Source: Okamejei kenojei
Lineage: Eukaryota
Assembly: GCA_035221665.1 (NCBI GenBank)
Contig: CM069135.1
Span: 26,598,001-26,662,000 of the forward strand
Reading direction: 5' to 3'
DNA length: 64,000 nt
The translations under genes and the position numbers were made by a program. Of the stretch, positions 1,081 to 64,000 are shown one piece after another. Below the pieces are notes generated by a model. It saw only the letters and a list, made by a program, of their open reading frames with translations, did no database searches and was not told the origin of the DNA. Every line of letters starts with the position of its first letter. Position 1 is the first letter of the stretch.

Positions 1081-3673
1081 TCTTAGGTCCTCGGTTCAGA
1101 AGGGAACTTAACTGGATGAGTTCAAGATCAAAGTCATCCAGGTCTAACAATTAGCAGTTAACCCACCATCTAATTCTTTCCACTACTAACTGCTCTATCA
1201 AGAGGATAACTTACAGGAACACATAGACTGCTCCCCAAGGAGCTCCTAAGCCAACTCCTTGGGGGAAGAGAGCAGGAGCTGTTCAGGAACAACAGATTCT
1301 TGTTCAGGACATGTGCCACTCCAACTTGGAAATGCAATGGACCTCTCCTTCATCAACTATAGATCCACATGCTGGAACGCTGAAACTAACATCATTGTGG
1401 GAGCATCATGCACACTGATTGCAGATCGCAGATCACTGCTAACTTCACAAGGGCAGTTCGAGGATGACTTTTAAATTCGCACACGGGCAATGCTCATGTT
1501 CTATAAATTTTTTCCAATTGTCACCAGTGCCAAGATCAGCCTAAAGAGTGAACCTGAGAACTAGGGCCACCAAACGAAGTCATTTAAAAACCTTGGAGCC
1601 CATTAAGCAAACAAACCTGATGCAAATATCACAGGATCCCATAAACATTGACTCAAGATTCGTTCAGAGATGTGGTCTCAGAAACTATCTGAATTTCTTT
1701 CAAATTTCACGTGAAAAAAGTTGCATTTGGAAAATAATTGCTCTGTGGAATTTTTATAAACTGCCGGGTCGTGAAATGCCAGAAACCTACCAAAGGTTTT
1801 GTGTTTTTTGGACCAGAAACTACCAAGGAATTAACTTCTCTTTCTGTGAAGAATCATCATGATTGTGGTCTGTAGCGAGGGTGGGTCTCATTAGCATGGA
1901 ATATACAGCAGTACAGTCACAAAGAGACCACGCTTAAAGATGATCAAATAAACCTGATAAGGCCTGACAATTTCCTCTGATGACGATGATGGGGAGAGGA
2001 GAGGGGGTTGAAATAGAGGACAAAATGAGGCAGATGTATTAAATGAAAGGCTTGCTGAGATGGCAGGAAGCGTTTCAAGGAGCATCTGTGGATATACAGA
2101 ACTTGCAAAAGGACCATGCGACCATTCGAGGCAAAAAACAGGGCAAAAACCATTAATTAAAGATAAAAACCAGCATTGCACTTCAGGGCATCACGTTAAA
2201 AAGAAATCAATGTGTTAATCCTCATTCAGGCTGCCAAGCAATGCTAGCTATTTGAACCTGCCCCTGCACCTTCCCTGTGGCTCAGCAACTTACAATTAAG
2301 TATAAACATTTAAGTATGAACTATTCCACACAAGTTTTCATCTCGCAATACCAGAGTCATCTCCAGGATTTTGCTTGCCAAAAGTGCATCTTACAAACCT
2401 GCAGATTCTTGGACAATCCAAACGGATTGGCAACTCGACACGCAACAGAACGAGGTTAATTGGAGCTAATTCAGTGATCTTACTGAGTCACAGTTCTCCC
2501 CAGCCCCGCCAACTGGCCTGCAGAAGGTAGTCACATTAGGTCTTAGTCAGATACCACAACTTCTTTGGTGGTTCAACCAACATTTCCGAGGCATTAAATA
2601 AATTAAGCCTGAAACTTGGATGAAAGTTGGATGAATAACACAAATTAAATATAACACAGTACAGTACAGGAGCAGGCCCTTCAGCCCACCATGTCTGTGC
2701 AGAGCAGACCATCTGTCTGTACATGGTCCATATCCCTCCATTCTCTGCCTCTTCATGTGCCTGCCTAAAGGCTACTTAAATACTGCTATCATATTTGCTT
2801 CTATCGCCCCTGGCAGCACGTTCAAGGCAGCAATAACTGATTGGGGATGATCAGCCATGGTCACATTGAATGGCGGTGCTGGCTCGAAGGGCCAAATGGC
2901 CTACTCCTGCACCTATTGTCTATAACCCTCTGTGTAAAAACCTTGCCCAACACATCTCCTTTAAACTTTGCCCCTCTCACTTTAAATCTTAACCCTTCTG
3001 GTATTGGACAGTTCCATACTGGAATATACATTCCGACTATCTACCCTATCAATGCCTCTCATAGTTTGCATCTATCAGGTCGTCCCTCAGCCTCCGATGC
3101 TGCAGAAAAACCAATCACTTTTCCTTGTAAATAATGCCCTCTAATCTTGACCACATGCTGGTAAAACTCTGCTGCACCTGTCCAAAACCTTCAAATCCTT
3201 CCCACAGTTTGGCAACTAGAACAGCACTCCAATGTGGCCAAACCGCACTTGTGTAGATTAAACTTCATCTGACATTTCAACACCCAGTGTTCCAACTGAT
3301 CCACATTCTGATGCATTCTTTGACAACCTTCCTCGCTGCCCTCAACACTACCATTGTTTGTGTCATACGCAAACTTGCTAACTGATCACCTGCATGATCA
3401 AAGAGGTCACACCATTGATCCTAGCAGAACATTGCTGGTCAAAAAAACACCCCTCTACCACTAATGTGACTTGATCTTCTAGATTAACCTACATTGTGCA
3501 ACCTTACCAAATGATTTATTAAAATTAATGTAGACAATATCCACTTCCCAATCCTCAACAAGCATCTTTGTTACCACCTCAAAAAACGAGGCAAAATGAC
3601 TTTAAACCCTACAACAGTGTTATGTTTTAAACAGTGGAAATACACAAGTCAGAAAGCGCATGGAAATATATGA

Positions 3674-4018
3674 ATTGATGCAGGAAAAATGTTCCCAATG
3701 TTGGGTGAGTCCAGAACCAGGGGCCACAGTCTTAGAATAAAGGGGAGGCCATTTAAGACTGAGCTGAGAAAACACTTTTTTACCCAGTGAGTTGTGAATT
3801 TATGGAATTCCCTGCCACAGAGGGCAGTGGAGGCCAAATCACTGGATGGATTTAAGAGAGTTGGATGGAGTTCTAGGGGCTAATGGAGTCAAGGGATATG
3901 GGGAGAAGGCAGGCATGGGTTATTGATAGCGGACGATCATCCATGATCACAATGAATGGCGGTGCTGGCTCGAAGGGCCGAATGGCCTCCTCCTGCACCT
4001 ATTTTCCATCTTTCTATA
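3674..4018 (+). mobile_element. CR1 LINE 3' fragment
   Basis: Encodes LGESRTRGHSLRIKG...VVNLWNSLP; conserved 3' UTR ggctcgaagggccgaatggcct and ttctat tail. Confidence 0.9.
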
Positions 4019-7475: not shown

Positions 7476-9852
7476 GATCTCCAGTTCGAGAGTCTTCCAC
7501 AAGAGAAATGCCCACTCCTCATCCATTCTTTCTCAACAATTCAGTATCAAGCCCGTTCTCACCTGTTTAACTCCAACAGATACGACACTGATCTGTTCAA
7601 CTTTTCTTCATAAGACAATGTGCCTATTCCTGGTATCAGCCCAGTAAACCTTTTTGTGAACTGTTTACAATGTACTTGCATCCTTCCTCAAACAAGACCA
7701 AATCTACACACACATCACCATTTGGCAAAATGAAGAGTTCTTAGCTGAGTGGTCCATGCAACTGGCCTCACTAAGTAACACAGGATAGTCATAATGATAT
7801 CTCCGCTAACAGCAGGATCGAAGCTAGGGGCCATAAACATAATAAAATTCAAAGAAGCTTCATTTCTCATGTTTGTACAATGTGTAAACTCAAGAGAGGT
7901 TGAGGTGAATGGAATAGGTAGGAAAATAATGGGAAAGCTCGATATGCATTTAAAATTGCAATGGGAAAAGGGGAATGGAAATACCTGTTGAGAGGTTAGA
8001 CAAAGACGGGTAGAAGGAGGCACACAAAGGGCATCACCACACAGATCAGGCAGGCAGGCCATATGATCTCCAAGAGACATCAAGTAGTTACTCCATACAA
8101 ATTAACTTTTGGAGCAATTTGAAGATGAAAAGGATCTGATAAGAAAATTATTTCCTCTAGTGTGAGAGTCCAGTAAAGGAGACTGAGAAATTGAGCGAGG
8201 TTGATAAATAACGTCTTTGCAGCCTGCGATAGAAATCTGGAACTCTCTCCCGTCGGGGATTAAATGATAACAAAAATCCATCAATCTTTTTGTAAATTAG
8301 GAATAGATACTGTGGGTTATGGAAACAAGGCAGGAAATGATCAGCCACAATCTAAGAATAATTAACTTTAAATCTGACGGCTATTGATTTTTGCCAGCCA
8401 AGTTAAAGGATACGGATATGTGGAAGATACAGTATGTGGAATTAGGATGCAGGTAAGGTATGGTCTTTGAAATGAACACTCAAATCTAAGGGAAGAATGG
8501 CCCATTCCAAATCCTATGTTCATTATCAAAATTTAAAAGACACTTGGACAGGTACATCGGATAGGAAAGGTTTAGCCGGATATGGGGCAAACATAGGCAA
8601 GTGGAACGAGCCTAGGTGGGGCAGCTTGATCGGCATGGATGAGATGGGCCGAAGGGCCTGTTTCTGTGCTGCATGACTCTGTCAACCGGTACTGCTGAGG
8701 CTGTGAACAATATAGCGAGAGATCCCGTTATGCTTCACCTTCTCACATAACTGCTCCAGAGTTGGTGAGTACTAGACAGCAAAGGACTTCGAATAGCCAA
8801 TATGGAGCTAGATTCAGCATCACAGTGGAAGCAGAACAAGAGGATCTCATTGCTCTGGTATGGTAACTGTGCTGAACAGATGTACATATTTGAAACAACC
8901 AATCCAAAGATTGCCAGAGGAAAGAATGAAAGTTTGTAAAAATCTTATCTAAAGAACGGAACTTTAGGGCAGTAGTTTTATTTAATTTCTAGCTCATCTT
9001 TTCCTAATGGTGCCTCAAGGTACAAAGAGGGTAAAAAATAAATTGCACAGCTGCAGTTTGAGATTTTCTTTCCATTTGGCTAATCCACTCTTGGGGTTGC
9101 GAACAACAAGAGGGACAATACTTCTGGCTTATTTTAAACACTCCTGATTTCGCAATTTGAAAAATCAAGTGATTTGACATCTGCATCAGAATTCAGTAAC
9201 TTCTCTGGGAACATCTGCTACATACACCAATATTCAACATTAGGAACTTGGATTAATATAGACAACAGATTAAACAAAACACATCGGTATCACATCGAGT
9301 ATTTTAAACTAATTCCCTGAACTTGCACCAACTTAAAACTCAACTTCATTGACATCCGGATGACCAACAAGGTTGGATACATCCCCACCATATATATAGT
9401 CTACCGTCTGCTTAAAACCAGACTGCCCACTTAAAAAGTTCAAAACCTTTGGATTATTTTCCTTCATGATTGGAATACCAATTCCCTCCTCCAATTCGTC
9501 ACCCATCTACATACATTATTAAATAGTTGTTTACTGACCTATCCCAATTGCTCCTGCCCACTGTCATCTGTCCTGTCCTTCTCTGCAGTTTGTTTCAGGA
9601 GCGCGAAGTTCACCTGCTTGATCTGCTCTTACAAAAATTGAGCTGCAGATTTCCACCCCCCACCCCCCAGGGTCTCTGGCGCCGAGTGGCCGCAGCACTA
9701 CCACTGTGCTGTCCAATTGACTTAATCCTGTTCATGTACAAGACACCTAGTGAGGTAACCAAATGATATCACAACAATCAAAAACTAAAGAAAATCGCTT
9801 CTTGAGCAGCTTTTTAAATGTAGTTAAGCATCTTGGGGCAGTTCATACAGGT

Positions 9853-10046
9853 TGCGTTATAATGGAGCTAGAGGAGGGTAGCATTATAACGCAACTATTG
9901 TATAAGGTAATGTTATAGTGGAAGTATAAGGTAGGATTATAAAGAAAATACAAGAGGCCATGTTATAATGTAGATACAACACATAGCGTTATAATGTAGG
10001 TAATAAGAGGCAGCATTATAATAGACATATAAGAGGTAGCGTTAGA
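9853..10046. repeat. Degenerate minisatellite (about 30-35 bp, core gcRttataatgtag)
   Basis: Recurrent gttataat/cattataa...agagg motifs, about 7 copies. Confidence 0.55.
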
Positions 10047-10976
10047 ACAACCAAGCAAAATGTTTGCTCAAAGACTAAGGTTTTAAGAAGCACTATACCA
10101 AGTGGGACCCGTTGGGTCCTGTCCCCTCAACGCGTGGTTGCGGGGGGGGGGGGGGGGGCTGCTGCATCACACACACTAACCATCCCCCTTGATATTATAT
10201 TAACATTATTCATTCGCTCCTTTTACCCCATCCGCACCGTGTCCACACGCGCATAGCCCCCAACTCGCTGACACGGCTAGAGAGGGAGGGCAGGGGCACA
10301 ACGAGGGCAGGGGCACAGTGAAGGCAGGGGCTCAGCGAAGGCAGGTCGGCAGCTCGAGTCCAGGGCCCCGACCTGCTCGTTCTTTCTGCACATTTTGAAT
10401 AACTGGGGGGGGGGGGGTCACTCACAGCACGTGGAAGATGGCACGCAGAGCAGACCCATTGTGACATCATCAGCGAAAGGCACACGTTTTTAAATTTTGT
10501 TTTGTCATATTTTTAAACATTTTCAGTAATAACTCGAGAAATAAAGCATGACATTTTCAGTTAAGGCGTTTTGAACTCCACGGGAAAAACATAGATTTTC
10601 GCGAAGATTTAAAAAACACACACATCCACATACAAGATCAGACTTTTAATAGTTACTAGACAAAGTGGGAACCATTGGGTCTCGTCCCCTCAATGCGTGG
10701 TTGCGGGGGGGGGGGGGGCAGCCTGCGGCATCACAAACACACTAATCACCCATCACCCCCCTCACACACTAACCACCCCCTTGATATTATTTTAATATTA
10801 TTCATTTGCTCCTTTTACCCCATCCCCGCCCTATCCACTCATGCATAGGCCCCAACTGCACAGGCGCAGTTAAAGAGGGGGCAGGGAGAGAGGTCGTGGG
10901 CTGGCGTCGACCTGAGACAACGACCCGAGGACCGAGAGTTCTGCGGCTCCAGTACAGGGCCCCCGACTTGCTCATT

Positions 10977-11127
10977 NNNNNNNNNNNNNNNNNNNNNNNN
11001 NNNNNNNNNNNNNNNNNNNNNNNNNNNNNNNNNNNNNNNNNNNNNNNNNNNNNNNNNNNNNNNNNNNNNNNNNNNNNNNNNNNNNNNNNNNNNNNNNNNN
11101 NNNNNNNNNNNNNNNNNNNNNNNNNNN
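10977..11127. other. Assembly gap (151 N)
   Basis: Run of n. Confidence 1.
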
Positions 11128-11250
11128 TCACTCGCAGCGCGTGGAAGAATGGCGCGTGGAGCAGTCCCATTGTGATTCATCAGCGAAAGGTAGTCGTTTT
11201 TAAATTCAAAGTTTTGTCATATTTTTAAACATTTTAAACAGTAATAAGTC

Positions 11251-14200
11251 CGGCGGCGTCAATGGTGGGGTGAGAGACGCTGCTGTTTTGCTCTGCTCCT
11301 GAAAGAATGTTTTAATGTGCTAAAATACAAGTGGGAAGACGGGGGAGTTCTAAAATATACTACCGGAGCTGCTATTTAATTGTGTGTTATCAGAAATTCT
11401 GCTGATAACAGAGAATAACGGCAGTTTTAAATGAAAAAAGTGAAAACTCGCCAGAAGCCTGTAAAACCTGCTTCAAGACCTGCTACAAGAGACTACTTGA
11501 AAAAACTTGGAAAGACTCCTCAATCCCCTCAAGCATCAGCTGGAAGCTCAGAAGAAGAAGCTGACTTCCAAAATCTTTCTACAGAAATTACCTCAAATGG
11601 TACAAAGAGCATATGGAACAATTGGAAAAGTCAGTATTAACTTCAGTCACTGAAGTTATTTCTAAAGTGATACAAGAGGGGAATGTTGCGCTGGACAAAA
11701 GCCTCGCTGAAAAAATTAAACAAGGTAATGATACACTGACCGGGAAAATTGATGACTTAACCAAACGTGTGGTCGAGGTTGAGGAGGATTTAAACAAAAA
11801 AATTAAGCGGGTTGCTAAGGACTGTAATAAAAAGCTGGATGCAATGTTAAAGTCTACTGAGGCGGCTATGGAAGAGGAATGGATAATACGATAACTGAGA
11901 TGGCTGTCTAAGGAGATAAAGAGACTAAAAAAAAGGAGCAAGAAAACACTGGAGGGGAGCTTGCTAAAAAAAGAATGAAAGCATAAATGTACGGGTGTAC
12001 TTGGAAGTAAGATCAAGAAGGCAAAACCTGAGGTAGTTGGAGTAAAAGAAGGAAAGGAGAGTGGACAAAACTTTCAGGAGTTTGCTGCCAACTTACTCAA
12101 ACAAGTACTTAAGCTGCCTGAAGCCCCGAGAATAGATATGGCTCACCGGGTCCGACGTAAGGTTCAAGCAAGCCCAACTGGGCTGCCCCCCCCACCCCCC
12201 CCCCTCCCAAGACAGATTATTCTGAAATTCTATGACATTTCAACCCTGGAAGGAATTATGAAAACGATTCCATATGGTGTGCATTTGATGTTTGGAGACT
12301 TCCGTGATTTTCCAGCTGAAGTCATGGAAAAGAGGGACAAGTTTACAAACACGAGAAGGCTACTGAAAGAGGTCTCGGGAGTAAGATATGGGATAGTATA
12401 TCCAGCGAAATTGAGAATTACTTATAACCATGTTGAACGTGAATTCACGGATCCAGAAGAGGCATTTAATTACGCACAAAGTATCACAAAGGAGGACTAC
12501 TGATCATGAGAAACGACGAAGAAAGAACTGTGTTTCTTTTTTTTAACATACAAAAAATACTGCTCTGGTTAAGATGGAGAACTTTCCTCGAGACGTTGTC
12601 TAAACATTTTATCTTTGGAATGTTAACTCAAGGTCGGATTTTATGTTTCACTTCAACAAAGGATTGACAAAGAAGAAAAACTGTGGTGGGGAAAATAACT
12701 TGAGAATATGGAAAAATATTATCAGTGAACTTGTATATAGAAATTTATGATTTAAGAAACACACAATTACATACTAACATAAAATATAATTAATAAAATT
12801 GTGTAATCTTAAGGCATAGCTTAATAATGGCTGATGTTTATCTCATGATGTTAATTACTTGCTAAATATAAGAATAACGAGTTAAATGATTGATAAGTAC
12901 TAATAACATACTAACAAATTTTATGGATATAGTAGATTTAGTCTAAATTGCGCGCAAAGAGGGGGGAGGAGACTCGGATGCTTGGAAGTTATCCAAGGGT
13001 TTGAATCTGGTTAACCCCTTGGAACCTGCTGTTGTCTGATACAAAAGTTTGAGACTTAATTGTAATAGATCTAGGCATATCGATAGATATGGATATATAA
13101 TTAACATAATTACTGTTATAGTACATATAATATATACACTCGGAAACTCATTTTTATTTTGTTTTTCCTCTTTGAAGATATATTTCTAATCTATCTATTG
13201 GAGTGCGTGAGTGCGTTTTATTTTTAATATATTTATAAATATATTTTTAAAAAAAATATATATATTTTTTAAAACTTTGTATCGCTCTCTCTTCCAATTA
13301 ATAATAACTGGTCAAGGGGGCAGAGCGAAACATATAAAGACATCTACGGAAGTCAACAAGAATTTTTCTACCACCTGTTGGTGGTCTGTTTTTAATTATA
13401 ATATCTTTATTTTTGGATATTATAATATCACTTTTTGTTTGTTAAGTATCTTTTCACGACTCTACACTTTCTGGTCTTTTTCAAGGTCTATTCTGAAGGG
13501 GAGATGCCAACAAAACTTAACAGCTGGGGATGACTATCCTCCACCTAGAGTTCTGAGGTTCTTGGTTGCACCATATGAAGTAAAGGTATTAACATGATCC
13601 ATAATGCAAGACGATAAACAAAAGAAAGCTGGAGGAATCACGTTCGGTAGTTGGAATATAAGGGGCGCTAATGAACCAATTAAAAGGGGTAAGATCTTTG
13701 CCCAATTAAAAGACTTAAACAGTGATATCATTTTCTGACAAGAGACGCATTTGAAATATCAAACACAGATAAGATTGAAGGCAAATTGGATTGGGCAAAC
13801 ATACTACTCTTCATTTACTTCTAAATCTAGAGGTACGGCTATTATCATTCATAAAGGTATACCATTTAAATTAAAGCATACCATAGCAGATAAAGAGGGG
13901 AGGTATGTCATAGTCACGGGAGAAATTTATTCTACTCCACTTACTTTGATAAATATTTATGCTCCTAATTCTGACAACCCCCAATTCTTTAGTAAAATTT
14001 TGGATACAATTACGGAACTTAACAATCAAAATGTGATAATAGGGGGAGATTTGAATTGTGTTTTAGATCCATATCTGGATAAATCAGCAAAACAAAAAAG
14101 GATTAACATAAAATCTAAAACTAATGAACTCCTAAATACATACATGAAAAATACCAACATAACAGATGTATGGAGGATCGCTAACCCAGTAGGTAGGGAA

Positions 14201-17200
14201 TATTCATTTTATTCAACGGTACATAAAACATATTCACGTATTGATTACTTCTTAGTGGACACGAACTAATTCCATATACATATAATTCTAAATATCTTAA
14301 TAGTATTATTTCTGATCATTCCCCGCTAACTTTTTCTTTAAAATTAGATGGAATGCCCGATAAAAAAATCGTTTTGGAGGTTTAACCCCCAAATCTTAAA
14401 CAACTCATAAGGATGTACATATTTAAAAGAGCAGATGGGATTCTTTTTTGAGACAAATGATACACCAGATATTTCACCCTCCTTATTATGGGAAACTTTT
14501 AAGGCATTTATTAGAGGAACTATAATCTCATATCAAGCTTTCCAAAATAAAAAGAATACTGAACAATTGCAGTTTGGACAAGAAATTAGACAATTAGATT
14601 TAGAAAATGCCAAAGAACCAACTATAGATGAACATAATAAGATAACAATACTAAAATATAAATTAAATAAAATTTTATCGGCCTGAATAATAAGATTATT
14701 TCAAACTACAAAACAAGAAATTTTCGAATTTGGTGATAAACCACATAAACTCTTAGTACACCAACTGAAAAAACGGGAAACAGAAAATACAATTACTAAA
14801 ATTAAATCAGACAAAGGGGAATTACTAACACTACCTAAAGATATTAATAAAAGATTGCTCAATTTTATCAAAATTTATATACATCGAAAACCTCTGCAAA
14901 TAATACTCAAATTACAAATTTCTTAGACAATTGTAATCTTCCAAAATTAAATATGGTGGAACAAGATTTACACTTACAAAATTCTTAAGGGGTTGGACAG
15001 GCTAGATGCAGGGAAGATTGTTCCCGATGTTGGGGAAGTCCAGGACAAGGGGTCACAGTTTAAGGATAAGGGGGAAGTCTTTTAGGACCGAGATGAGAAA
15101 ATCGTTTTTCACACAGAGAGTGGTGAATCTGTGGAATTCTCTGCCACAGAAGGTAGTTGAGGCCAGTTTGTTAGCCATATTTAAGAGGGAGTTAGATGTG
15201 GTCCTTGTGGCTGAAGGGATCAGGGTGTATGGAGAGAAGACAGGTACAGGATATTGAGTTGGATGATCAGCCATGATCATATTGAATGGCGGTGCAGGCT
15301 CGAAGGGCCGAATGGCCTGCTCCTGCACCTAATTTCTATGTTTCTATGTTTCTAAGAGGGATTAGCAGCCCAGATTTCACTACAGGAAATAGAAGAAACA
15401 ATAAATTTGTTGAAGAATGGCAAAATGCCAGGACCAGATGGCTTTAGTAATGAATTCTATAAAAGATTCTATGAGATAATTTCCCCACGCCTGCAAGATC
15501 TATATATATGCTTTTAAAGAAAATAAACTACCAGAAACACTGAGTCAATGATTATACTTATACCAAAAAAGGATAAAGATCTAGACGACCCAGGCTCATA
15601 TAGAGCTATTGCACTCCTAAATACAGATCAAAGACCCTAGCGAGAAGATCGAGTAAATATTTTAGCTACCTAATAAACCCGGACCAAACAGGGTTTATAC
15701 CAAAGAGATACTCGTTTAACAATTTGAGATGGCTGTCTAATATAATGTACTCACATAATACTGAAGAAGAACTAGCAATTATTTCATTGGATGCAGAAAA
15801 AGCTTTCGATCAAGTAGAATGGCAATATTTATTCAAAGTATTGCAAACATTTAACATGGGAGATAACTTTATCTCATGGGTAAAATTATTACATGATAAG
15901 CCGACGGCTAGAATACTGACTAATAATATATTATCCCCGAAATTCCAATTAGCAAGGGGCAATAGGCAGGGGTGCGTACTATCGCCCCTGCTATTTGCAC
16001 TAGTGATAGAGCCTTTAGCAGAAAGTATATGTAGTCATCTGAATATTCATGGATATAATACCAAACACTCAAATAATAAAATTTCATTATATGCAGACGA
16101 CACATTACGATATATTACAAATTTGCAAATTAGCATACCAAATATACTAAACTTAATAGAGGAATTTGGTTCTTTTTCAGGATATAGAATAAATTGGAAT
16201 AAAAGCGAAATTATGACGATAAAACCTCAAGAGCCGACACATTTGTTGAAATTCCCCTTTAGAATTGCAACAGAAAAATTTAAGTATTTGGGTATCCAAA
16301 TCACTAGGAAATATAAATCATTACTCAACGCAAACTATATGCCTTTATTAACTAAATTAAATGGGTTGATCAAATTTTGGAAAACACTGCCGATGTCCTT
16401 AATAGGCAGAATAAACGCGATAAAAATGATCTTCTTACCACAAATATTGTGCCTATTTCAATCAATACCAATATACTTACCTAAACAATTCTTTAAAAAA
16501 CTAGGCTCTGATATTATAAACTTCATATGGGATTATAAATCACACAGAATTAAAAAAACAAAAAAACACTTGTGTAAATCTAAAGAATCAGGGGGACACT
16601 TCCTAACATTGTATTGCTATTGGGCAGTGAATATTAAAAATATAATCTATTGGTTGGACAGTTCTGCCCAACAGGTAGATTGGATGAGAATGGAGAAAGA
16701 GGATTGTTCCCCTTATAATACAGGAGCGATTCTTTTTCCCCCGATGAAACTGAACAATATAATATAAGACAAATCCAATTATTCACAGCATAATACGAAC
16801 TTGGAAACAAATAAAACTAACTTTAAAATTAAGAAAAATATCGCTTTTTTCTCCAATAGCCAATAATCCCTCATTCAAACCATCCATTATTGATAAAACG
16901 TTTATCCATTGATAAGAATAGGAATTAAAATGATGGGAGATATGTATGAAATGGGAAAACGTTTATCATTCCAACAATTACAACTAAAATATAATTTGAA
17001 AAGTCATCAATATTTCAAATATCTTCAAATTCAAGATTATTTGAAAAAATATATACAAGGATATCAAACTATAACCCCAGATTTATTGGAGGAAGGAATT
17101 AATAGAAAGGCAGAATCAAGCAATTTAATATCTTACTTATATAATACAATTCTAAATATAGAAACACCAATGACAGAGGCAATTAGAAGGGACTGGGAAC

Positions 17201-18088
17201 AAGAGTTATTGATAAAAATGCCAAACAATAGATGGGAAAAAATGTATTATATGTAAATAAATGTTCAATTAATGTAAGACATAACCTAATTCAATTTAAA
17301 TTTTACATAGACTATATTATTCGAAAACTAGACTGAATAAAATATTTTCAAATGTTTCCACCATCTGCGACAAATGTTTAACTCAAAATGCCACTATAGC
17401 ACATTCCTTTGTCTCTTGTATAAAACTGTATAAATTTTGGAATGAAATTTTTGGAATTTTTACAAAACTATTTAACACAAAATTGAACCCCAATACAGAA
17501 CTGATTATCTTTGGATCAATGGAAGAGGGAAGTAATCTAACTATATTCCAAGAAGCTTTTCTTAATTACGGCCTAATAACAGGAAAAAAAAACATACTCA
17601 AATTTTTGGAAAAACGCAACCACGCCAACATTCAAAATGTGGATTTCAAACATGTCTGAAATGCTACACCTTGAAGAAATGAGATTTCTCCTACTAGGCA
17701 AAGTAGACCTATTCTTAAAGACTTGGTCTCCTTTTATCAACTTTTTACAAGCAGATGGTGCAACATAAGAAATTAAATGGTTTAGAACCGGGTGACGGAT
17801 GGGCAAAAATACGAAATAGGTAGATCTCTCCTAATCGCCCTTTTCTTTACTTTCTCCTTTTCTTTCAATCTTTTTAGCTTCTTATCTCTGTCCTGTATTT
17901 CTTTGGCTATCTGTTCCTACTCGCTTGTCTATCTATTCCGACACTCTTTATTTCTTTTTTCTCTCACTGTTCTTTTATTATTAAATCAAAAGTACGAAGT
18001 GTACAAGAATGGAAATATATGTATGTATGTGGTACTCAAGTACCACACTATTGTACTTACTTCTAACAAAAATAAACAAAAACAAAAA
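11251..18088 (+). mobile_element. Full-length but decayed L1 LINE
   Basis: Short CpG-containing 5' UTR; ORF1 remnants 11431-12503 (coiled coil, RGIVYPAKLRI-like YGIVYPAKLRI); AT-rich spacer of about 1.1 kb; ORF2 13604 to about 17768 (SWNIRG, QETH, GDLN, SRIDY, LDAEKAFD, RQGC, YADD, C-terminal CxxC) with stops and frameshifts; A-rich tail; TSD AAGTC at 11246-50 and 18089-93. Confidence 0.93.
14967..15353 (+). mobile_element. CR1 3' fragment inserted in L1 ORF2
   Basis: CR1 ORF2 end plus (tttctatg)n tail; TSD AAGA at 14963-66 and 15354-57; removal restores L1 frame EQEGLAAQISLQEI. Confidence 0.92.
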
Positions 18089-18941
18089 AAGTCAAGAAAT
18101 TAAGCATGACATTTTCAGATAAGTAGATTTTGGACTCCACGGGAACAATGTCTACTGGAATATATAAAAATGGTATAGTTACCGCATAGATATTTGGCGA
18201 ATATGTAATAACACACAAACAAACACACATATCCACATACAAGATCAGACTTTTAATAGTTACTAGACCAATTGCAGACCCATTGCGTCTGCTCCCCCAA
18301 CACACCCGTCCCCTACCCATAGCCCCCACGGGAGGCGTGGGGGACAGAGAGGGAGCGGGAGAGGGGCAGTGAGGGAGGGGGGTAGAGTTTGAGAGGGGGG
18401 GTGCATTGTCACAGGGGAGGGCTGGTTCCCGAACGCAATACTCCCTCGCTCCTGGTGGCAGGCTCCGCATACGAGGGAGGGGGAAAGTGGTCGGGGGGGG
18501 GGGGGGGGGCGGGGAGAAGGGAGACTTCACTCGCAGTGCGAGCCAGAAGACAGCGGGTTTTTCCCCCAAACCTTTTTCAGATTTTTGAACATTTTCATTA
18601 ATAACTCAAGAAATAAAGCATGAATTTTTCAGATAGGCAATTTTGGACTCCACGGAAAAAATCTCGACCGGAATATGTAAAACTTTTATCGTTAGCGCGT
18701 CATTTTTTTTTGAGAAGATGTGATTATACACAAACAAAACAAATACACACACATACAAAATCAGACTTTTAATAGGTATATATGATATAGATATAGATGG
18801 TAAAGAGGAAGAGCTGGTAGAGGTAGAGATATTTAGGTAGGAGATACCTGAGCCTGGAGAGCGGAAGGCACAGTTGCCAATGGTGGTGCAATTAAAATAA
18901 ATTATTTCTCACAAACATTTTCAGCTACAGAAACGACTTAC

Positions 18942-19193
18942 CGACAATACTGAATCCATTTTCATAGTTAGGTTGCTCCAAAGCAAACATCCAACCAATT
19001 ATACTTCCAACTGAGGACAGTGGTAAAAGCGACCATCCCACGGCTGCGGGGATCCTGCTTATCGCCGTGTATGACCGCCCATCGTTCACCACCACATACG
19101 AATGAAGGTCGATGTCCTCAAACTGGACAGGCACCGGGTTGGTTCCCACAAAGATCTTTCCATTCACCTTCCCGTTCACACGCTGTGGGGTCC
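18942..19193 (-). CDS. NID1: Nidogen-1 exon 6 (G2 beta-barrel)
   Basis: GTPQRVNGKVNGKIFVG...DLHSYVVVNDGRSYTAIS...IIGWMFALEQPNYENGFSIV. Acceptor ttatcAG; donor GTAAGT; 252 bp, phase 1/1. Confidence 0.97.
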
Positions 19194-19994
19194 CTGATAA
19201 TGCAAAATAAAAAGGAATCTGTAGGACACCATGCTCTTGAATTTATTTGGCTGAAGAACTTAAAGGAGATTTATTTTTAAATGATTCCGATGGTCAAATG
19301 ATCATCAGCGGAAGTGTGAAGGGAACCAGCTTATGGCCTGGTGTAAATTAATCTATATTAGGTAGTGGTGAGGGGACTGCAGTGACAGGGGAAGAAATGG
19401 CAGAAACAATGTAATCCAGAGCATTCTCCTCCCAATCTTAGATCGCATGGGATCCAAGGAGAGATAGTTGAATGGATGGCAAATTGGATTCATGGAAGGA
19501 AGCAGAGGATAGGATAGGTTTAGAGGGACATGGGCCAAACGCAGCCAGGTGAGATTAGTGTAGATGGGGCATGTTGGTCAGCATGGGCAAGTTGGTCTGA
19601 AGGTTGATGCTGTAAGACTCTATGACCCTATATTGCCCTATGATCCTTTTTGGAACATGCACGGTGGACATCATATAATGTAAGATTAGATTCAAATCCC
19701 TCCCACAAAAGAATGTCTGGAGACAAATAGAATTTAAGACTAAAAATTATGATTTTGTTTAGCAAGGTTAAATATGGTTCCCATATTCCATTATAATCAA
19801 ACACCTGTGTCTGTCTTGGGGTCTCAAGTGTGAAATGAGTTCACAACCAAGATCAGGATATCACCTTGTAATAATCTTCCCGATTTCAAAATGATGAACC
19901 AGCACCCCTCGGTTTAAGTCATAAATCATAGAGAATGACCCTTCCCCACACTGTACAGAGATCCAGTTGGAGGAAGTAATGCGAGCAGACTCAC

Positions 19995-27531: not shown

Positions 27532-27975
27532 GAAACATAGAAAATAGATGCAGGGGTAGGCCATTCGGCCCTTCAAGCCTGCACTGCCATTCAATATGAT
27601 CATGGCTGATCATTCAACTCAGTATCCTGTACCTGCCTTCTCTCCATACCCCCTGATCCCTTTAGCCTCAAGGGCCACATCTAACTCCCTCTTAAATATA
27701 GCCGACAAACTGGCCTCAACTACCTTCTGTGGCAGAGAATTCCACAGGTTCACTACTCTCTGTATGAAAAATGATTTTCTCATCTCGTTCCTAAAAGACT
27801 ACCCCCTTATCCTTAAACTCTGATCCCTTGTTCTGGAGTTCCCCAACATCAGGAACAATCTTCTCTATAAGATCCCCCCTCAATCTTCTAAATTCCAGCG
27901 AGTACAAGCCGAGTCTATCCAGTCTTTCTTCATATGGAAGTCCTGCCATCCCAGGAATCAGTCTGGTGAACCCTC
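27532..27975 (-). mobile_element. CR1 3' fragment with internal deletion, lying within an inverted Penelope pLTR pair (about 27400-28115)
   Basis: aaacatagaaaatag tail; [39 protein letters not shown]; flanking arms are mutually complementary. Confidence 0.85.
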
Positions 27976-39397: not shown

Positions 39398-39667
39398 TTA
39401 TGATAACATTTAAGAGACACTTGGACAGGTATATCAATAGGACAGGTTAAGAGGGATATGGCTCAAACGTATGCAGGTGGGACTAGTGTAGACGGGGCAT
39501 GTTGATCGGTGTGGGCAAGTTGGGCCGAAGGGCCTGTTTACATGCTGTATGACGGTATGGTTGAGCTTGCCTCAGCGACGATCCCACCTGCCACGCCGAA
39601 TCCGCCCGTACTGTTGCCAGGGCCCCGCTGCACCCACACTCCACGCTCCCGCGGCAGCTTCGCGCTC

Positions 39668-40740
39668 CGCCCACACTCCCCGCACCACCCACACTCCCCG
39701 CACCACCCACACTCCCCCCACACCACCCCCACACTCCCCCGCACCACCCACACTCCCCGCACCACCCACTCCCCCGCACCACCCACACTCCCCCACACCA
39801 CCCCACACTCCCCGCACCACCCCCACTCCCTGCACCACCCCACTCCCCGCACCACCCACACTCCCTGCACCACCCCCACTCCCCCGCACCACCCACACTC
39901 CCTGCACCACCCACACTCCCCACCACCCCACTCCCCGCACCACCCACACTCCCTGCACCACCCCCACTCCCCCGCACCACCCCACACTCCCCGCACCCCC
40001 GCACCACCCCACTCCCCGCACCACCCCCACTCCCCCGCACCACCCCCACTCCCCGCACCACCCCCACTCCCCGCACCACCCCCACTCCCCACACTCCCCA
40101 CACTCCCCGCACCACCCCCACTCCCCGCACCACCCCCACTCCCCACACTCCCCACACTCCCCGCACCACCCCCACTCCCCGCACCACCCCCACACTCCCC
40201 GCACCACCCCCACTCCCCGCACCACCCCCACTCCCCGCACCACCCCCACTCCCCGCACCACCCCCACTCCCCACACTCCCCGCACCACCCCCACTCCCCA
40301 CACTCCCCACACTCCCCGCACCACCCCCACTCCCACCACTCCCCGCACCACCCCCACTCCCCGCACCACCCACACTCCCCACACTCCCCGCACCACCCCC
40401 ACTCCCCGCACCACCCACACTCCCCACACTCCCCGCACCACCCACACTCCCCGCACACCCACACTCCCCGCACCACCCACACTCCCCGCACCACCCCACA
40501 CCACCCCCACCACCCCCACACCACCCCCACACTCCCCCCGCACCACCCACACTCCCCACACTCCCCGCACCACCCCACTCCCCACACTCCCCGCACCACC
40601 CACACTCCCCGCACCACCCACACTCCCCACACTCCCCGCACCACCCACACTCCCCGCACCACCCACACTCCCCGCACCACCCACACTCCCCGCAACACCC
40701 ACTCCCCCGCACCACCCACACTCCCCGCACCACCCACACT
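39668..40740. repeat. C-rich minisatellite (about 18-bp unit ccacactccccgcaccac, with shorter variants)
   Basis: About 1.07 kb of tandem variants; causes stop-free ORFs in five frames. Confidence 0.95.
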
Positions 40741-52054: not shown

Positions 52055-54983
52055 ACATAGAAACATAGAAAATAGGTGCAGGAGTAGACCATTCAGCCCT
52101 TCGAGCCAGCACTGCCATTCAATATGATTATGACTGATCATTCAAAATCAGTACCCCGTTCCGGCTTTTTCCCCATATCCCTCGATTCCCTTATCCCTAA
52201 GAGCTAAATCTACAGCTTTGGTTTGATTTGGCTAGAAACTTTGATTCTTAACTCAGCATCTTCCTATATGGGAAAAGGGAAGATATCCTGATCTCTTGAA
52301 AACATCCAGTGAATTTCACTCAACTGCCTTCTTTGGCAGAGAATTCCACAGATTCAAAACTCTCTGGGTGAAAATGTTTGTCATCATCTCAGTCCTAAAT
52401 GACCTATCCCTAATTCTTAAACTGTGACCCGTGGTTCTGGACGCCCCCAACATCGGGAACATTTTTCCTGCATCTACCCTGTCCAATCCTCTAAGAATTT
52501 TATATGTTTCTGTAAGATCCCCTCTCATCCTTCTAAATTCCAGCGAATACAAGCCCAGTCTAACCATTTTTTCATCATATGTCAGCCCCGCCATCCCGGT
52601 AATTAACCTGGCGAACCTACGCTGCACTCCCTCAATAGCAATAATGTCCTTCCTCAAATTAGGAGACCAAAACTGCACACAATAGTTCAGGTACGGTCTC
52701 ACCAGGGCCCTGCACAACAATGAAGGCCAACACGCCATTAGCTTTCTTCACTGCCTGCTGTACCTGAATGCTTACTTTCAGTGACAGATGTACAAGCACA
52801 CCCAGGGTCTCGTTGCACCTCCCCTTCTCCTAATCTGACACCATTCAGATAAGAATCTGCCTTCCTGTTCTTGCCACCAAAGAGGATAACCTCACATATG
52901 TCCACATTATACTGCAACTGCCATGCATCTGCCCACTTACCCAACCTATCCAAGTCACCCTGCAGCCTCATAGCATCCTCCTCGCAGCTCACAGTGCCAC
53001 CCAGCTTTGTGTCATCCACAAACTTAGAGATCTTACATTTAATTCCTTTGCCTAAATCGTTAATTTATATTATAAACACCTGGGGTCCCAGCAACGAGCC
53101 TTGCGGCACCCCACTAGTCACTGCCTGCCATTCTGAAAAGGACCTGTTAATTCCTGCTCTTTGCTTCCTGTATGCCAACCAGTTCTCCATTCATGTTAAT
53201 ATCCTACCCCCAATACTATGTGCTCTGATTTTGCACACTAATCTCTTGTGTGGAACCTTGTCAAAGGTTTTTTGAAAGTCCAGATACACCACAGCCACTG
53301 GTCTCCCTCATCCATTCTACTTGTTACATCGTCAAAAAATTCCAAAAGATTAGTCAAGCATGATTTCCCCATCATAAATCCATGCTGACTTTGACCGATC
53401 CCGTCACTGCTTTCCAAATGCACTGCTATAACATCTTTAATAATCGACTCCAGCATCTTCGCCACCACCGATGTAATGCTAACTGGTCTATAATTCCCCG
53501 TTTTCTCTCTCCCTCCGTTCTTACAAATTGGAGTTACATTGGCTACCCTCCAGTCCACAGGAACTGATCCAGAGTCGAGAAAATATTGGAAAATGATCAC
53601 ATTGAAACATAGAAAATAGGTGCAGGACTAGGCCATTCGGCCCTTCGAGCCTGCACCGCCATTCAATATGATCATGGCTGATCATCCAACTCAGTATCCC
53701 GTACCTGCCTTCTCTCCATACCCCCTGATCCCTCTAGCCACAAGGGCCACATCTAACTCCCTCTTAAATATAGCCAATGAACTGGCCTCAACTACCTTCT
53801 GTGGCAGAGAATTCCAGAGACTCACCACTCTCTGTGTGAATCACCAATGCATCCATAATTTCTAGGGCCACCTCCTTGAGTACCTGGGGAAGCAGACCAT
53901 CAGGCCCTGTGGATGTATCTGCCTTCAGTCCCAACAGTTTACCTAACACCATTTTCTGACTAATGTGGATTCCCTTCACTTCCTCCCTCCCACTAGACCC
54001 TTGGTCCCCTAGAATTTCCGGGAGATTGTTTGTGTCTTCCACAGAACCAAAGTACTCGTTTAACTGGTCTGCCATTTCCATGTTTCCCATTATAAATTCA
54101 CCTGTCTCTGACTGTAAGGGACCTACATTTGTCTTCACTAATCTTTTCCTTTTTACATACCTAAAGAAACGTTTACAGTCAGTTTTTATATTCCCTGCAA
54201 ACTTTCTTTCATGCTCTCTTTCCCCTCAATTAACGCATTTGTCCTTCTCTGTTGAGTTCTAAATTTATTCCAGTCGTCTGACTTGCCACTTTTTCTGGCC
54301 AATTTATATGCCTCTTTCTAGGATTTGCCGCCACTATCCTTGACTTCCCTCGTCAGCCACGGTTGAACTGCCTTCCCAGTTTTATATTTTTGCCAGAGAG
54401 GGATGAACAATTTCTGGAGTCCTTAAATCATTGCCATTGCATATCCACCGTCAACCCTTTAAGTATAATTTGCCAGTCTATCCTAGCCAATTCCCGTCTC
54501 ATACCTTCAAAGTCTCCTTTATTCAAGTTCAGGAGCCTAGTCTCCGAATTAACCGTGTCACTCTCCATCCTAATGCAGAATTCCACCATATTATGGTCAC
54601 TGTTGCCCACGAGGCCTTGCACAACAAGATCACTAACTAATCCTTCCTCACAATACCCAGTATAGGATGCCACACATATCCCTAATTTCCTGCTTGATGC
54701 TATCCCCAACCTCCCTACTGCTATTTGTATACAACTCCAACAAGTGTTTTTTGCCCTTGGCTATTTTATAGTTCTACCCATACTGATTCTACAGCATCCA
54801 AGCTAATGTCTCTCCTTGCTATTGCATTAATCTCCTCTTTAACCAGCAATGCCACCCAACCCCCTCTTCCTTTCTGTCTATCCTTCCTGAATATCGAATA
54901 CCCCTGCATGTTTAGGTACCAGCCTTGGTCACCCTGGAGCCATGTCCCTGTAATTCCAACTATATCATATCCCTTAACTACTA
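52055..54983 (-). mobile_element. 5'-truncated CR1 LINE with nested CR1 3' fragment (53601-53839)
   Basis: EN (YDIVGITGTW, FRKDR..GRGG, GNSDHN) and RT motifs; nested copy flanked by TSD ATCAC at 53596-600 and 53840-44. Confidence 0.93.
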
Positions 54984-55199
54984 ATATCATATCCCTTAAC
55001 TACTAATCATATCCCTTAGCTACTATTTCCTCAGGGGAAATCTAAATTATTCCGATCAAAAGTTGAAACTCGGCTTTCTGTTATAAGTAGACGATTGTTT
55101 AGACGATATACAAGAAACTGTTGATGCTGGTTTACAAAAAAAATGACACAAAGTGTCTAGAGGTTAGCGAGCGCAATTTGAGGCGGATGTTTGATCCCA

Positions 55200-61489: not shown

Positions 61490-62390
61490 CTAAACAGAGT
61501 TTTAATAAAGGCTAAGTATTTTATACCACAAGTTAAGAAATCCTGGATCTATATTTATACACAGCAGAAACTACCAGAAACGTTAAATGAATCTATTATA
61601 ACACTTATACCTAAAATATAGAAAGATCGGGATGACCCAGGATCATTTAGAGCTACAGCTCTTTTAAATACTGATCAAAAGATATTAACTAAAATATTAA
61701 CACAAAGGCTGTACAGTTTTTAATGAATTAATTCATCCCAATCAAACAGGATTTATACCAAAATGATATTCCTCATATAACTTGAGACGTTTATTCAATA
61801 TTATATACTCAAAAAGAGGTATTAATAAAGATCTAGTAGTTATTTCGTTAGATGCGGAGAAAGCCTTCGACCAGGTGGAATGGTCTTACTTGTTTTCGGT
61901 TATGGAAACTTTTAAATTGGGAGAGAAGTTTATTACTTGGGTCAAATTATTATACACTAACCCAACAGCCAGAATAATAACAAATCAAACACTATCAACT
62001 AAATTCAGTCTATCTCGAGGCTGTAGACAAGGTTGCCCTTTATCCCCACTACTATTTGCACTTGCAATAGAACCATTAGCTCAACGTGTGAGATCACATC
62101 CTGATACCAGAGATACTGAAAATAAAATCTCCTAGTATGCGGATGATGTATTACTTTATATTACAAAACCGGAAATTAGTATCCAAAATTTATTAAAATT
62201 AATAACTGAATTTGGATCTTTTTCAGGATATAGTATTAATTGGAATAAAAGTGAACTCATGCCAATAATGGTAAATAACTTACATATATTACAACAATTT
62301 CCTTTTAAGATAACAAACGAAAAAATTAAATATCTTGGAATTTATGTAACAAAAAGATTTGATTCTTTATTTAAATCCAACTTCCCACTC
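61490..62390 (+). mobile_element. L1 ORF2 RT fragment
   Basis: ISLDAEKAFDQVEW, GCRQGCPLSPLLF, YADD, KYLGI. Confidence 0.9.
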
Positions 62391-64000
62391 TTTTTTTTAT
62401 TTTTATTTTTAAATTTTATAATACAACTTAGGAGATAGGTCCGTAGGTACAGAAAACAAAACTATTCGTCTAGTCCTGGGTTCAAGCTTCCGTCGAGCCT
62501 CAGCGCTGACCCATTCTACCCCTTCAAATAATCTATGAACGGGGACCATATTCTAATAAATAATTCAGGTTTGTCGATTAAGACAAATCTTATTTTTTCC
62601 AGATTTAAGGTCTCCGACATCTCCATAATCCACATTTTAGTTGTAGGGAATGCAGGGTTTTTCCAAAATTTTAATATTAGTTTTTTTCCCAGTTATTATA
62701 CTATAATCCAGGACATTTCTTTGGTTTATTGTTAGTTTTGGGTATTGTTCAGATATGCCCAATATTATTAATTTAGGATCGGGATCCAGTTGAATATTAA
62801 CCACTACGGAAATAATTTTAAAAATATCCACCCAAAATGTTTTAATTTTTATGCAATTTACAAAAGTATGGGTTAAATTAGCCTCAGAGTATTGACATTT
62901 GTCGCAGAGAAGAGAGATATTAGGAAAAATTCGGTTTAATTTTGTTTTAGAATAATACAATCTGTGTAATATTTTAAATTGTATTAAAGAATGTCTGCGT
63001 TTAACGAACATTGATGTATATGTTGTAGGCTTTCATCCCAAATATCTTTCGTTATGGGTTGAACTAATTCATTTTCCCATGCTTGTCTATGTGATTCCGT
63101 CGACGGATTCTCACTATCTAACAGAATATTGTAAATATATGATATTAATTTGACTGCATTGGGATGTTTATTCAAACATTCGTCTAGAATCTCTGGTTCT
63201 CTAATTCTGTATTCTTGTGTATGTGATTTAACATAATCTTTCAATTGTAAATATCTAAAAAAATTATTTGAATGTAATCCATAATTCTGTTGTACCTCCA
63301 GAAACGAGAGGAACATACCATTTCTATAAAGATGTCCCATCTTTTTAATTCCATAGTTTTTCCATTGTGTGAAGCCTTTATCCAATACCGAAGGCTTAAA
63401 TGAAGGGTTATTTGCAATAGGGAGCGAAAGTGATAAATTATCCAATTTTAATGTTTTTTTTATTTGTTTCCAAATTCGAATGTATTATTATTGGATACAT
63501 AATACTATGTATTATTGGATTTTCACTATAGATCTTTTTGTTCAATTTTGTAGGGGATAGGAGAATCGGACCAATTTCAAATGGCAGACAGTCCTCCTTT
63601 TCCATCTTTACACCAATCTGGTTGTTGATCCATATCTTCCAACCAGAAATTTAAGTTTTTGACATTGACTGCCCAGAAATAAAATAAGAAATTTGGTAAG
63701 ACTAATCCTCCGTTCGTCTTAGATTTACATAAGTGTTTTTTACTTATTCTGTGATTCTTATAATTCCAAATAAAACTTGTTACAATAGAGTCAATTTTTT
63801 AAAAGAATTTTTTAGGTAGGTATATTGGAATTGATTGGAAGAGGTATAGAAGTTGAGGAAGGAAAATCATTTTAATTGCATTAATTTTATCGAGCATTGA
63901 AATAGGAAGCGTTTTCCAGTATTGAATATTCTTATGCAATTTATTAAGTAAAGGCACGAAATTTGATTTAAATAAAGAAGTATATTTCTTGGTCACATAG
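62391..64000 (-). mobile_element. L1 3' portion in antisense, continuing past the window end
   Basis: KINAIKMIFLPQLLYLFQ, NFFRYLQLK, LIQFKILHRLYY, CDKC; poly-A tail read as a T-run at 62391-62410. Confidence 0.9.

Follow-up and report, generated by a model that had tools for sequence, protein, structure and literature searches.

Helitrons that insert into the 5′ ends of other Helitrons have been described in several lineages. In Fusarium, self-insertion has produced elements with several 5′ termini (PMC5148889), up to five in one report (PMC13342296), and three Helitron copies in Metarhizium acridum were attributed either to rolling-circle replication or to a 5′ end being entered twice (PMC5148889). 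Consecutive head-to-tail insertion is described in maize, in a report that also cites cases from bats (PMC2267711), and composite Helitrons have transposed in bats (PMC4224331). Maize also has multi-terminus Helitrons, for which insertion is preferred near or inside Helitrons and nests yield several 5′ or 3′ ends (PMC3288121, PMC12477314). Here we describe a further, probable case of such self-insertion at 5′ ends. It lies in a 64,000-nucleotide (nt) stretch of the batoid Okamejei kenojei (assembly GCA_035221665.1, contig CM069135.1, positions 26,598,001 to 26,662,000), referred to below as the window. Three related non-coding Helitrons, which we call A, B and C, are stacked there on the minus strand of a nidogen-1 intron.

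FoHeli of Fusarium oxysporum is non-canonical, with variable repeated 5′ pieces of 31–85 nt and usually one 3′ end (PMC5148889). Unlike FoHeli, the block has canonical TC and CTAG ends and heads of 5–6 nt, keeps all bodies and 3′ ends, and has a joint fixed to one nucleotide. Like the head-to-tail Helitrons of maize, it joins different same-strand Helitrons straight after CTAG (PMC2267711). The maize joint reads CTAG|TC and leaves the 5′ end complete, whereas here the joint lies 5–6 nt inside the end and the heads are stacked. For the maize multi-terminus elements the accessible text gives no fixed nucleotide, and their internal 3′ ends mostly lack CTAG (PMC3288121). With the vertebrate Helitron1 elements Helibat/Helraiser (PMC4778049) and Heli1Xen1 (PMC12001565), our block shares a TC start, a TA-rich 5′ motif, a hairpin followed by CTAG, insertion at A|T and short non-coding copies, a likeness by described features and not by sequence. 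Tandem arrays in Xenopus are mostly Helitron2 minisatellites (PMC12001565). An initial annotation of this DNA had placed tandem Helitron arrays mainly in plants and insects, which was too narrow, as they are also described in fungi (PMC5148889) and, head to tail, in a bat (cited in PMC2267711). In the literature covered, which did not include subscription journals and so gives a weak negative, we found neither nested Helitrons from a cartilaginous fish nor a Helitron joint fixed to a 5′ box.

The block occupies positions 10093–18797 of the window. Read on the minus strand from 18797, its 5′ edge passes from flanking CCA into TCTATA TCTATA TCATATATAC CTATTAAAAG, the last of these being a conserved box. 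Both internal joints, 18263|18262 and 10656|10655, read CTAG|TAACTATTAAAAG. With up to two mismatches allowed, these two are the only matches to that string in the window, and 100 shuffles gave an expectation of 0.00. The CTATTAAAAG box has three matches in the window, all within the block, and it also follows each internal joint. Three heads starting with TC are stacked at the 5′ edge and there are three bodies, so the equality of heads and units that the initial annotation had noted does exist at this block. Among the window's 8374 background A|T sites, only 2 are immediately preceded by two TC-starting, AT-rich heads. The block's 3′ end is ATAG|T at 10093; both outer edges are A|T, at the host site CCA|TGC. 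A contig of the same organism (X1 record 8, from the public runs described below) spans 18747–19450 with one difference, which means that the 5′ edge is not an assembly error.

The letters and coordinates quoted for the block in that annotation all matched, as did the Helitron-type ends, with A running from TC to CTAG, B ending in CTAG, C ending in ATAG, and A|T edges. Its statement that the copies lack target-site duplications (TSDs) and terminal inverted repeats (TIRs) also held where we checked it, at the block edges: TSD length was 0 at both candidate 5′ edges, and no TIR was found. Helitron2/Helentron elements (HINE, DINE-1) have terminal or subterminal inverted repeats and insert at T|T. 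We rejected that assignment on the A|T edges, the CTAG ends and the lack of a TIR; no separate search for subterminal repeats was made. The block was not among the repeats reported by Tandem Repeats Finder, and Rfam gave 0 matches within 9500–19500. The 64-kb window held no family copies beyond the block, and no repeat in it spanned both flanks in a way that could show an empty site.

Unit A, the innermost, is a complete non-autonomous Helitron of 523 nt (18263–18785, minus strand) that runs from TC to CTAG, with its box at 18766–18775. Unit B (10656–18262, minus strand) is a headless body that starts with TAACT and ends with CTAG. Its Helitron parts, 18089–18262 and 10656–11250, are separated by a retrotransposon considered further below, and its box lies at 18250–18259. 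Unit C (10093–10655, minus strand) is a headless body of 563 nt that starts with TAACT and ends with ATAG before the host T; its box lies at 10643–10652. Upstream of A, two TCTATA heads follow the host A on the minus strand. The outermost (18792–18797) would be the 5′ end of C, and the second (18786–18791), which is TCATA in one orthologous contig, would be that of B. Between B and C, 446 of 517 aligned bases match (86%), and long indels separate the two. A resembles them only in its first ~200 nt (81–83%) and its last 33 nt (78%), its 3′ half being different, and A and B have 5′ segments in common that C lacks.

A hairpin sits about 10–15 nt before the 3′ end of the units. That of A (18274–18292) has one stem mismatch in the window and folds better than its shuffles (z −2.36). 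The B hairpin (10667–10683) is decayed, and C (10105–10119) has an intact 6-bp stem; taken singly, neither rose above its shuffles. At positions 18272 and 18286, more than 90% of the depth in runs X1 and X3 differs from the window. With these majority letters the A hairpin becomes a perfect 8-bp stem with the core GACCC-AAY-GGGTC found in B and C. Because of this shared core, the 3′ end of A is of the same family as those of B and C, with a different outer stem. The initial annotation had given the innermost unit a different hairpin, which overstated the case. In the A-type and C-type ends the outer stem letters differ and yet are complementary within each, a minor covariation that supports the hairpin.

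To look beyond this locus, we used the contigs of 4 of 15 public runs (X1, X3, X5 and X9) aligned to 18000–19450; individual listings cover 32 of the 19,863 pieces and, for loose ends, 24 of 1,697 rows. In X1 and X3 the flank differs at 0–1 in about 700 letters, which places them in the same or a very close organism. Between 3192 and 6924 contigs aligned per run, mostly less than 95% alike, and depth ratios were 2,200–3,800, values that give a scale only and not copy numbers. The units belong to an old, abundant, dispersed multi-copy family. Contigs departed right after CTAG-TA in 36 cases in X3 and 33 in X9. Their loose letters agree at 0.44–0.47, the level of simulated unrelated flanks of about 80% AT. 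Since the flanks behave as unrelated AT-rich DNA, the CTAG end of A is a mobile 3′ boundary of the solo type. Four of the listed loose-end rows end at 18705, beside the edge (18707) of a 39-nt gap in C relative to A. This hints that the short form of C is perhaps a subfamily, and we do not count it as evidence. Pattern matches at four loci in metagenome contigs and in one prokaryote genome were set aside as chance, the similarity being confined to the 20–23-nt pattern. Two pattern scans gave 0 matches in viral contigs, and the 3′ pattern gave 0 in prokaryote genomes.

The initial annotation had proposed that solo copies start TCTATA|TAACT and that each insertion falls at a fixed offset of 6 nt. 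The contigs do not bear out the fixed start. Depth at 18782 relative to 18777 was 0.12 (X1), 0.11 (X3), 0.14 (X5) and 0.43 (X9), so the share of the depth that reaches that position is only 11–14% except in X9, where it is 43%. A simulated TCTATA|TAACT solo start reached 18782 in 150/150 alignments under each of four scoring schemes, and shorter starts mostly fell short. Most copies therefore probably carry heads shorter than a TCTATA start, within the limits of the measure: the simulated scoring schemes may differ from that of the contig aligner, contigs break in repeats, and copies of the B or C type may align to B.

The 6-nt offset is probably not fixed either. All three organisms compared over 18000–19450 carry the head of A, two of them relatives with flank divergences of 2% and 4% that have it at the orthologous site. 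With gaps taken literally, the orthologue in X9 record 32 (flank about 4% divergent) has the heads TCTATA, TCATA and TCATATAC, or 6 + 5 + 8 nt; 3 of 27 substitutions are not displayed in this record and could change the head reading. Its second head plus the start of B reads TCATATAACTATT, one letter off its own start of A. Removing the inner unit on this reading leaves a TC head and the box, and the modal head is shorter than had first been proposed. On the literal reading of X9 record 32, then, the number of heads is kept between orthologues and their length is not. The constant feature is the joint 3 nt before the CTATTAAAAG box, with the offset counted from the box. Nearby, the upstream flank at 18813–18830 (minus strand) is a TCTACC hexamer repeat with two units here and three in the X9 contig, a difference in unit number from which slippage is active beside the stack.

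Three of the 32 listed pieces cross 18263|18262. X1 record 3 covers 18215–18340 at 85.5% identity, with 78 and 48 letters on either side, and then leaves B; in the organism it comes from, the orthologous contig has 1 difference in 704 positions. X5 record 18 (90%) crosses the joint by 14 letters and X3 record 9 (85%) by 9. Nine further X5 contigs depart after TAACTATTAAAA, 12 nt past the joint. The majority line of their loose ends is TG-rich like the family head, and 2 of 2000 background windows score equally. These nine contigs suggest other partners beyond the joint. Taken together, the pieces make a fair, if not firm, case that the joint recurs at other loci with different partners.

We think that the stack probably arose by successive insertion, C then B then A, with a RepHel transposase predicted to have used, each time, the A|T that precedes the CTATTAAAAG box of the resident copy by 3 nt, although our confidence in this is modest. 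Element C would have entered the host first, at CCA|TGC. B would then have inserted into the head of C, and A into the head of B. Each insertion would displace the old TC head leftward and place the incoming CTAG directly against the body already there. Every event would split a head from its body, leaving the heads in a stack and the bodies headless. The retrotransposon in B would have come later. We infer this order, the assembly in place and the cause from the anatomy described above. For the cause we favour a proposed step in which RepHel bound to the 5′ box of a resident copy takes the nearby A|T as acceptor, because the nick at the element's own 5′ end and the target nick would both be A|T cuts. 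In Helraiser the transposase binds and cuts within the terminal 40 bp, which suffice for precise cleavage; the left end is cut at A|TC, and insertion occurs at AT in AT-rich DNA (PMC4778049). A box-bound transposase that cuts in this way would have an A|T at hand. A rough chance model with assumed genome size and copy number was run for four kinds of target, and for 3,000 copies none of them gave more than 0.014 triple nests. That the family homes to itself, with box-bound RepHel always nicking the A|T that lies three bases ahead of the box and integrating there, is a more tentative proposal that falls short of probable. It is plausible and unproven.

Several results weigh against successive insertion with homing. 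By a 31-letter rule, full bridging of the joint is provided by X1 record 3 alone among the 32 listed pieces. The loose ends of the nine X5 contigs agree at 0.5, compared with 0.44–0.52 for unrelated flanks, and between 17 and 47 of 500 shuffles did as well, which is a weak excess. AT-rich flanks would reach as far by chance in 0.1–43% of the class departing at 18261, depending on scoring and AT content. Relative depth at 18789 was 0.04–0.06 in three runs and 0.26 in X9, within the simulated chance range of 0.01–0.33, so depth does not establish that stacked heads recur at other loci. The chance model yields 0.1–14 triple nests without homing if 30,000 copies and a narrow TATA target are assumed. 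Neither an empty site nor an intermediate (C alone, or B with C) was seen among the organisms compared over 18000–19450, and no RepHel partner with the same ends was found within the window, where none of 20 open reading frames (ORFs) of at least 170 aa was recognised by eye as RepHel-like. Finally, an assembly gap inside B could conceal sequence.

A composite origin, which we consider unlikely, would have the nest built elsewhere and copied here, with a RepHel nick at the outermost TC, read-through of the ends of A and B, and a stop at the end of C. Precedents are established for both end bypass and composite Helitrons (PMC4778049, PMC4224331 and the model in Fig. 7 of PMC5148889), and copying would likewise make the joint recur. 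Also in its favour, the hairpin stems of A and B are mismatched and the 6-bp stem of C is intact, but one or two stem changes per unit are compatible with ordinary decay. Moreover, A and B have kept their inner CTAGs, whereas the outer end has become ATAG; in maize the situation is the opposite, with CTAG missing from 99 of 100 internal 3′ ends (PMC3288121). The partner past the joint also seems to vary, with X1 record 3 leaving B after 48 nt and the nine X5 contigs after 12 nt.

Ordinary target choice seems to us a still poorer explanation. It holds that A|TA in AT-rich DNA is favoured, that the family's own head qualifies, and that high copy number does the rest, with no homing. Solo-type A ends are indeed followed by TA and AT-rich letters (agreement 0.44–0.47, about 80% AT), and Helraiser favours AT-rich DNA 3′ of its site (PMC4778049). 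At 30,000 copies and a TATA-only target, 0.1–14 triple nests are expected, but the host site, CCA|TGC, is not TATA-like; the target is thus not TATA-only, and this escape is weakened. A|T or A|TA targets give at most 0.003 even with 30,000 copies, and the head offers several A|T steps, of which both joints use the same one.

Very improbable, in our view, is an origin as a tandem product or rolling-circle concatemer whose joints are imprecise, the hexamers being a host microsatellite or slippage copies of the start of A: slippage does act here (the TCTACC flank repeats, two here and three in X9, and the head-length differences between orthologues), about half of undigested Helraiser circles have aberrant junctions (PMC5876387), and the divergence of B from C (14%) is near that between ordinary copies, but the different 3′ half of A and the absence from C of 5′ segments common to A and B are impossible from one template, two independent coincidences would be needed (truncation at the same point twice, and as many TC heads as there are units, the latter at 2/8374 background sites), and a precise circle junction predicts CTAG|TC between like units (PMC5876387), whereas both joints are CTAG|TAACT between units that differ. 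The view of the initial annotation that the units are separate insertions and not a concatemer is thus upheld by joints without TC, by non-identical units and by the apparent recurrence of the joint at other loci.

Most of the 8.7-kb block is made up by the decayed retrotransposon in B (11251–18088, plus strand), a near full-length element of 6.8 kb with an A-rich tail and a 5-bp TSD, AAGTC (11246–11250 and 18089–18093). Two of the five ORF pieces scanned matched domains, RVT_1 (E 1.5e-29) and Exo_endo_phos (E 1.7e-7); we take it to be of the L1 type from its ORF1/ORF2 layout. A distant relative (64–68% identity) lies at about 61568–63988. Within the L1-type element is a dispersed repeat fragment, presumably a CR1/L2-like 3′ end (14975–15349), with matches of 92–93% at 27532–27866 and 53599–53840; this repeat has several copies in the window, and its place here makes four levels of nesting. 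The gap mentioned above comprises 151 N (10977–11127); the corresponding stretch of C is about 40 nt long and includes a poly-C run.

The host gene is nidogen-1, for which the best named matches were batoids (78–82%) and sharks (72–75%). At least seven of its exons lie on the minus strand within 4213–37839. Beyond the exon at 18942–19197 (minus strand, start approximate), the block starts after 144 nt of the following intron and lies in sense orientation. That intron is about 14.5 kb long, of which the block takes up 8.7 kb. Elsewhere in the window, positions 39623–40740 hold a 1.1-kb GC-rich minisatellite with a 9/18-nt period, and most frames of either strand are open there. At 54959–55026 (plus strand), a 22-nt unit containing CTATATCATAT occurs three times; it resembles the Helitron heads but lacks the box.

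As a single old, inert nest in an intron, the stack is of modest significance. Helitron insertion near or into Helitrons has been reported, without an explanation in the literature as far as consulted. A joint fixed to one nucleotide beside the 5′ box yields a sharp prediction, namely that RepHel lands on resident ends. Nesting would be a route to mixed tandem arrays without a concatemer, and the stacked heads would date the insertions in order. If homing is true, arrays of mixed subfamilies would lengthen from their 5′ end, and the events could be counted from the stacked TC heads. In a vertebrate Helitron, target choice would then be partly guided by the protein through the end of the element itself, with the position counted from the box instead of the terminus.

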